The notes below the pieces were generated by a model. It ran no database searches. It saw only the letters and a list, made by a program, of their open reading frames with translations, and had not been told where the DNA came from. This document shows positions 28,123 through 29,013 of a stretch of DNA of 64,000 bases, in pieces; the first letter of the stretch is position 1; each line of letters opens with the position of its first letter. The position numbers and the translations under genes are program-made. This DNA comes from Escherichia coli (lineage in GTDB: Bacteria > Pseudomonadota > Gammaproteobacteria > Enterobacterales > Enterobacteriaceae). Where the stretch lies: assembly GCF_045037415.1 (NCBI RefSeq), contig NZ_CP173438.1. The stretch is one strand, 5' to 3'.

Positions 28123-29013
28123 TTGGATTTACGCGATCTGAAAACCTTCCTGCATCTGGCGGAAAGCCGCCATTTTGGCCGCAGCGCGCGGGCAATGCAC
28201 GTTAGCCCGTCCACGCTCTCTCGGCAGATTCAGCGCCTGGAAGACGATCTCGGTCAGCCGCTGTTTGTGCGCGATAACCGCACGGTAACGCTAACCGAAG
28301 CAGGCGAAGAACTGCGCGTTTTCGCCCAGCAAACGCTGTTGCAGTATCAACAGCTGCGCCACACCATCGATCAGCAAGGACCGTCGCTCTCTGGCGAATT
28401 ACATATCTTCTGCTCGGTGACCGCTGCCTACAGCCATCTGCCGCCGATTCTCGATCGCTTCCGCGCGGAACACCCGTCGGTGGAGATTAAACTCACGACT
28501 GGTGATGCGGCAGATGCGATGGAAAAGGTCGTCACTGGCGAAGCGGATCTGGCGATTGCCGGGAAACCGGAGACTCTGCCCGGCGCAGTGGCGTTTTCGA
28601 TGCTGGAGAATCTGGCAGTAGTGCTGATTGCCCCCGCGCTACCCTGCCCGGTGCGTAACCAAGTTTCGGCAGATAAGCCGGACTGGTCTACAGTGCCGTT
28701 TATCATGGCCGATCAGGGACCAGTACGCCGGCGCATTGAGTTGTGGTTTCGACGCAACAAAATCAGCAACCCGATGATTTACGCCACGGTCGGCGGGCAT
28801 GAAGCGATGGTGTCGATGGTGGCGCTCGGCTGTGGCGTAGCCTTGTTGCCGGAAGTGGTGCTGGAAAACAGCCCGGAACCGGTGCGTAACCGCGTGATGA
28901 TTTTAGAGCGCAGTGATGAGAAAACGCCGTTTGAACTGGGCGTGTGTGTGCAGAAAAAGCGGCTACATGAGCCGCTGATTGAGGCATTCTGGAAGATTTT
29001 GCCGAACCATTAA
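28123..29013 (+). CDS. ilvY: LysR-family activator of ilvC
   Basis: ORF track 28039..29013; remembered N-terminus MDLRDLKTF implies TTG start at 28123; exact start uncertain. Confidence 0.85.

Follow-up and report, generated by a model that had tools for sequence, protein, structure and literature searches.

The window analysed here is a 64,000-nt stretch of Escherichia coli DNA. It contains two pairs of convergent genes whose 3′ ends overlap, ilvY/ilvA and hsrA/rbsR (Table 1). The ORF list showed that 28039..29013 (+) and 29010..30557 (−) share 4 bp, and that 45283..46710 (+) and 46676..47668 (−) overlap by 35 bp. Both stop codons of the first pair lie in one tetranucleotide, the ilvY TAA at 29011-29013 (+) and the ilvA TAA at 29012-29010 (−). 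The window is 100% identical to strain SK1144, and to other strains, across the ilvY/ilvA junction, and the gene coordinates in Table 1 are those of the SK1144 RefSeq annotation. The overlaps of 4 bp and 35 bp given in the preliminary description were thus confirmed. The four genes were translated at full length, and the ORF lengths of IlvA, HsrA and RbsR equal those of the K-12 reference proteins. In SK1144, as in many further records, PGAP gives the gene at 45283-46710 the name 'mdtD' (multidrug transporter subunit MdtD); in the K-12 reference it is hsrA, a putative transporter. The 'mdtD' label was apparently carried over from a paralogous MFS transporter.

Table 1. Features of the two convergent junctions in the window.
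Feature	Position	Strand	Basis
ilvY, LysR-type activator of ilvC, 296 aa	28123..29013	+	translation, SK1144 annotation, C-terminus ...ILPNH kept across genera
Intrinsic-terminator-like element for the ilvA (ilvGMEDA) transcript, within ilvY codons 277-285	28950..28976	−	consensus scan, fold, conservation
Shared TTAA, both stops, YTAR-type convergent overlap	29010..29013		sequence; −4 in 33/70 species
ilvA, threonine deaminase, last gene of ilvGMEDA, 514 aa	29010..30554	−	translation, annotation, C-terminus ...FRFFLAG
Weak hairpin AACCUGAACGCCGGGUU + AUUGGUUUC, candidate ilvY terminator within the ilvA 3′ end	29026..29051	+	scan match
hsrA (yieO), MFS transporter, 475 aa	45283..46710	+	translation, annotation, homologues 463-478 aa
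Hairpin about 36 nt past the rbsR stop, inside hsrA	46603..46640	−	fold z = −2.5
35-bp overlap, last 11 HsrA codons + stop antisense to last 11 RbsR codons	46676..46710		sequence; 7/11 species
rbsR, ribose operon repressor, last gene of rbsDACBKR, 330 aa	46676..47668	−	translation, annotation

The overlaps might be annotation artefacts, with one stop codon or C-terminus of each pair mis-called and the proteins ending earlier. The last 11 residues of E. coli HsrA would fit this explanation. They are variable between species and missing in Yokenella, Pseudocitrobacter, 'E.' lignolyticus and Kosakonia, so this tail may be functionally irrelevant. However, the stop codons are fixed by the sequence; they stand unrevised, with no in-frame stop before the annotated one, and RefSeq SK1144 agrees. 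The C-termini of IlvY (...ILPNH) and IlvA (...FRFFLAG) are kept to the final residue across genera, that of IlvA being invariant in 69 species, and the RbsR C-terminus (...RGS(A/V)) is kept as well. Because the C-termini are conserved, mis-annotation was dropped as an explanation and we consider it extremely improbable.

Across the eight convergent junctions of the window, the spacers measure 90, 46, 45, −4, 24, 95, −35 and 4 bp. Two of the eight overlap and two more have spacers of only 4 and 24 bp, which shows that tight junctions are locally common. The two near-spacerless pairs are viaA/asnA (57743-57748, 4 bp) and yifB/maoP (37438-37463, 24 bp). The published list of K-12 excludons (PMC12288877) includes asnA-viaA.

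A scan with IlvY, using one genome per species, gave 80 Enterobacteriaceae loci, 70 of them with both gene ends. Both partners are genuine coding genes on opposite strands with conserved C-termini (orthologues in 70 species), and the tetranucleotide TTAA of the window is one of the four YTAR forms (CTAA, TTAA, CTAG and TTAG). The overlap was exactly −4 in 33 of the 70 species (TTAA in 9, CTAA in 18 and CTAG in 6), including Klebsiella pneumoniae, Citrobacter freundii, Kosakonia, Enterobacter, Atlantibacter, Lelliottia, Raoultella, Yokenella, Trabulsiella and Leclercia. Spacers of 4-97 bp were found in 24 of the 70 and inserts of 0.47-2 kb in the other 13. The short spacers, 18-97 bp long in other genera, are nearly all single or paired REP/BIME-like palindromes of several sequence types, and this variety of palindromes at one site implies, as far as sequence comparison can tell, repeated independent insertions. 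No other state of the junction is as frequent or as widespread as the 4-bp overlap, which is probably ancestral.

Some of the larger inserts carry genes. Citrobacter youngae-type genomes have a 397-aa ORF between ilvY and ilvA (locus L032, 4078-5271), which we take to resemble a FabV-like enoyl reductase. Phytobacter has two ORFs of 143 and 237 aa at this place (locus L061, 3860-5039). In both groups, the last three ilvY codons are replaced and a new ilvA hairpin lies 17-20 nt past the stop codon.

The junction also differs within E. coli. In K-12 MG1655, ilvA ends at 3956875 and ilvY at 3956927, leaving a 51-bp spacer (locus L001, 1377-1427) and no overlap. The alignment of K-12 with the window showed a 58-bp insertion with the REP-type palindrome GCCTGATAAGCGAAGCGCTATCAGGC, placed exactly between both stops; this REP element is absent from the window. 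With the insertion, ilvY ends in ...NHK* instead of ...NH*, and the ilvA stop is TAG instead of TAA. The lysine codon that the REP allele adds at the end makes IlvY 297 aa long in K-12, vs 296 aa in the window. Of 5426 complete E. coli genomes, 2888 (53%) carried the K-12-type REP junction, 2342 (43%) the contiguous junction of the window, and approximately 196 other states. A set of 60 evenly drawn genomes split 30 to 27, in line with the full count. In contiguous alleles, the PGAP annotation shows the 4-bp overlap. K-12 is therefore unrepresentative at this junction, since its REP insertion is missing from nearly half of E. coli genomes.

Among the E. coli genomes with other states, strain DETEC-E601 has an IS621 (IS110-family) transposase gene between ilvY and ilvA (locus L007, NZ_CP116176.1, 170-1499). 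IS621 has been reported to target REP sequences, so this copy presumably landed in a REP allele. Pseudocitrobacter faecalis DSM 27453 (locus L011, QNRL01000013.1) shows a K-12-like junction with the same REP spacer; its IlvY is 98% and its IlvA C-terminus 100% identical. Such close identity points to a contaminated or mislabelled record, or to recent transfer.

The K-12 REP hairpin is followed on the ilvY strand by AUUUUUCC and is terminator-like. The presence or absence of REP could act as a functional switch and not be mere neutral variation. In REP+ strains, ilvY would gain a hairpin and U-run terminator, and the ilvA mRNA a 3′ stabiliser shielding it from antisense RNA; in the overlap strains, ilvY transcripts would run unchecked into ilvA. 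We hold this speculation to be rather doubtful, but if it were true, strains would differ heritably in the expression of branched-chain amino-acid genes. The REP+ and REP− junctions are a natural allele pair for testing the role of REP between convergent genes.

The hsrA/rbsR junction was compared in 11 species, E. coli and 10 further ones. The yieP-hsrA-rbsR-rbsK synteny was kept in all of them. Seven species had −35 at the junction, two had −4, and one each had −9 and +3. The overlap is shorter or missing in some species because HsrA ends earlier there (...KERHK). The HsrA tail beyond ...KERH(K) is a lineage-specific extension, antisense to the conserved RbsR C-terminus. The overlapping segments showed no extra nucleotide constraint. 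The overlap is 35 bp in K-12 too. On these comparisons, both overlaps are inherited and not coincidental.

The preliminary description held that neither pair has room for an intervening terminator and that each transcript must run into the partner gene as antisense RNA. Its first part stands: neither pair has intergenic room, so any full-length mRNA must enter the partner ORF. Its second part, taken as unrestricted antisense run-on, probably fails for ilvA, because the ilvA strand carries a predicted terminator inside ilvY. This element lies 33 nt past the ilvA stop and comprises the stem AGCGGCU, the loop CAUGU and the stem AGCCGCU (28976-28958), followed by UUUUCUGC (28957-28950). It is encoded by ilvY Q277-K-K-R-L-H-E-P-L285. 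With a 7-bp stem of which five pairs are GC, a 5-nt loop, the tail UUUUCUGC and a folding energy of −10.5 kcal/mol, it has the make-up of an intrinsic terminator, and the other genera mostly have a stem of 8-9 bp and U6-7. The hairpin is also present in K-12. The element was kept in all 59 species with adjacent genes (an overlap or <100 bp between them) and in every locus where the C-terminus of IlvY is retained. In the overlap alleles it always lies 33 nt from the ilvA stop; at the other loci, the spacer adds its own length to this distance.

The element lies downstream of ilvA, the last gene of its transcription unit, and is conserved beyond coding needs. Among the 59 adjacent species, the third positions of codons 277-280 and 282-284 were near-invariant (CAA 55/56, AAA 59/59, AAG 59/59, CGG 59/59, CAT 47/47, GAG 58/59, CCG 59/59), while two third positions in the loop or outside the stem varied freely. 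The 8-codon window 277-284 has the lowest synonymous entropy in ilvY, 0.17 bits vs a gene mean of 0.99 bits, a value reached in 0 of 20000 permutations. No base-pair covariation was found in the stem, which is invariant among the adjacent species; synonymous entropy and a natural relaxation control were therefore used in its place. In the 13 species with at least 472 bp between the genes, 9 of 65 codon-sites were changed, vs 1 of 295 in the adjacent species (Fisher p = 1.1e-6, not phylogeny-corrected). Codon 277 was CAA in 4 of the 13 separated species vs 55 of the 59 adjacent ones, and 8 of the 13 had their own ilvA hairpin 17-20 nt past the stop. This relaxation serves as a natural control and supports termination, as predicted from the sequence, as the cause of the constraint. 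We regard it as a very clean case of a coding sequence doubling as a predicted terminator, in which the synonymous constraint is gone when the neighbour is displaced.

The palindrome in codons 277-285 could be conserved for a reason other than ilvA, such as ilvY mRNA stability, translation pausing or a protein-binding DNA site. It folds in the ilvY-sense RNA as well, and the invariant stem offers no covariation that would prove strand-specific RNA pairing. However, the constraint extends over the A-run (CAA AAA on the ilvY strand), which is relevant only as the U-tract of the ilvA strand, and it relaxes precisely where ilvA has been displaced and bears its own hairpin 17-20 nt past the stop. 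The ilvY strand continues after the hairpin with GAUUGAGG and has no U-tract there. We therefore consider a function unrelated to ilvA very unlikely. A bidirectional intrinsic terminator was also rejected: the hairpin is preceded by CCUCAAUC on the ilvA strand, and the element is unidirectional because the ilvY strand lacks a U-tract after the hairpin.

The U-tract of the predicted ilvA terminator is not the same everywhere. At 28949-28957 (ilvY codons 276-277), the window and K-12 have GTG/GCG CAG vs GCA CAA in most genera, and this difference cuts the U-tract from U7 to U5-C-U. The E. coli U-tract (UUUUUCUG) is shorter than that of most genera, so the predicted terminator may be leaky. One E. 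coli representative genome (L009) keeps CAA, and the strength of the terminator may vary within E. coli.

From the position of the element, we infer that the ilvA mRNA would end near 28950, with just the final ~60 nt of ilvY covered in antisense. The curated K-12 Term-seq list (PMC7815308 Supp. file 1, ~1000 ends per condition) has no dominant 3′ end at the predicted ilvA terminator and no end at the ilvY/ilvA or hsrA/rbsR junction. The supplements of PMC12207403 have no entries for ilvY, ilvA, hsrA or rbsR.

The second-lowest synonymous variation in ilvY was seen at codons 1-8 (28123-28146). The K-12 Term-seq list has an abundant 3′ end at 3957809 (−), only 11 nt into ilvY (PMC7815308 Supp. 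file 1). Within the divergent ilvY/ilvC control region, the start of ilvY may be a site of promoter-proximal pausing or of attenuation.

The other three transcripts showed no comparable element. The scan match in the ilvA 3′ end that could have served ilvY (hairpin 29026-29042) lies outside the minimum-free-energy fold, has z = +0.45 and was found in only 14 of 70 loci; it is probably not functional. The last 45 ilvA codons showed ordinary variation and no synonymous constraint. The terminator scan found nothing near the hsrA/rbsR overlap, and the 3′ ends of hsrA and rbsR contain no island of synonymous constraint among the 11 species. The hairpin at 46640-46603 (−) was rejected as an rbsR terminator. 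It has no U-tract, its complementarity is absent in other species and its codons show no synonymous constraint; without a U-tract or conservation, it is probably incidental. An Rfam scan at a permissive E-value found no known RNA family in 28000-30000 and 45800-47600.

Published K-12 data list Rho termination regions beyond both plus-strand genes (PMC7815308 Supp. file 2). One at 3956067 (−) is antisense to ilvA, ~860 nt past the ilvY stop, with a Rho score of 3.7. Another at 3938923 (−) is antisense to rbsR, ~260 nt past the hsrA stop, with a score of 2.8. These data agree with read-through from ilvY and hsrA ended by Rho, at a resolution of ~800 nt and with independent antisense transcripts as another possible source of the regions. 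Antisense run-on is thus better supported for ilvY, hsrA and rbsR, which have no conserved embedded terminator and for which there are the K-12 Rho regions and the rbsR-hsrA excludon, than for ilvA, whose predicted antisense part is only ~60 nt.

Another explanation is that the overlaps are regulatory excludons, in which complementary 3′ ends couple the genes by transcriptional interference, polymerase collision or RNase III cleavage of the duplex. It would be expected that high ilvGMEDA expression lowers ilvY and that the rbs operon lowers hsrA, or the reverse. The rbsR-hsrA pair is among the 165 convergent excludons of the MG1655 'excludome' and was seen in at least 50% of 58 RNA-seq sets, but ilvA-ilvY is missing from this list (ExcludonFinder 2025, PMC12288877). 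Termination can be aided by collisions between converging polymerases (bioRxiv 10.1101/2022.10.23.513370). The zero-spacer hsrA/rbsR junction and its synteny are kept in 11 species and the −4 ilvY/ilvA overlap in 33 of 70; however, the hsrA/rbsR overlap has no extra nucleotide constraint and ranges from +3 to −35. At ilvY/ilvA, the 51-bp REP spacer is present in 53% of E. coli genomes, and REP/BIME spacers or 0.5-2 kb of inserted genes occur in 37 of 70 species. The junction tolerates these, so the tight overlap is dispensable. What appears to be selected is a terminator that limits the ilvA overlap to ~60 nt. Taken together, regulation through the overlaps appears unlikely.

We consider it probable that both overlaps are real, old and compact convergent junctions with no special regulatory device, and that ilvA ends at a terminator inside ilvY while ilvY, hsrA and rbsR are mainly stopped by Rho. 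With no intergenic DNA, the termination signals would have to be located within the partner gene. The strongly expressed ilvGMEDA operon would use a Rho-independent terminator in ilvY codons 277-285, with a GC-rich stem of 7-9 bp and 5 U here or 6-7 U elsewhere, presumably kept by purifying selection on synonymous sites. The weakly expressed regulator and transporter genes ilvY, hsrA and rbsR would have no conserved intrinsic terminator. Their transcripts would enter the partner by some hundreds of nucleotides before being stopped, mainly by Rho acting on the untranslated RNA, as the K-12 data suggest for ilvY- and hsrA-sense transcripts and as we infer for the strain of the window. The 4-bp overlap persists because both C-termini are constrained and all four YTAR variants keep both stops. 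Insertions of REP palindromes or genes have taken place exactly at the ilvY/ilvA junction in many species besides E. coli, and in approximately half of E. coli, K-12 among them.

This arrangement is already known, both generally and for the two specific pairs. Convergent overlaps, terminators embedded in the partner gene and clean-up of read-through by Rho are textbook-level features of E. coli, and they carry little weight as a discovery. Of 370 convergent operons in E. coli, 276 have overlapping 3′ ends, and the mean overlap is 286 nt (Conway 2014, PMC4161252). At the level of coding genes, 58 convergent overlaps were described, with a modal length of 4 bp and the sequences CTAA, TTAA, CTAG or TTAG; the Rho-independent terminators of such pairs must sit in the coding sequence of the partner, and 21 of the 58 pairs have one (Lillo & Krakauer 2007, PMC2174442). 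The ilvY/ilvA overlap fits this modal class, with TTAA here and CTAA or CTAG in other genera, and nothing essential differs. The 35-nt hsrA/rbsR overlap belongs to the longer class, which arises by loss of an earlier stop (PMC2174442). With regard to excludons (PMC4161252, PMC12288877), rbsR-hsrA is listed as a convergent excludon in K-12 MG1655.

REP elements between convergent genes have been proposed as 3′-UTR terminators or decay blocks, and strains differ in where these elements lie (bioRxiv 10.64898/2026.03.23.713779). The REP unit of K-12 ilvA/ilvY, followed by AUUUUU on the ilvY strand, resembles this system, whereas the junction of the window has no REP. The closest known system is that of Sameshima, Wek & Hatfield 1989 (J Biol Chem 264:1224; cited in PMC4161252), a work which, by its title, concerns overlapping transcription and termination of ilvA and ilvY in E. 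coli K-12. That system has the same two genes in the same convergent layout as the window, and K-12 has the same hairpin in the ilvY 3′ coding region. It differs in that K-12 carries the 58-bp REP insertion, with the genes 51 bp apart and no overlap, whereas the window has the contiguous allele found in 43% of E. coli.
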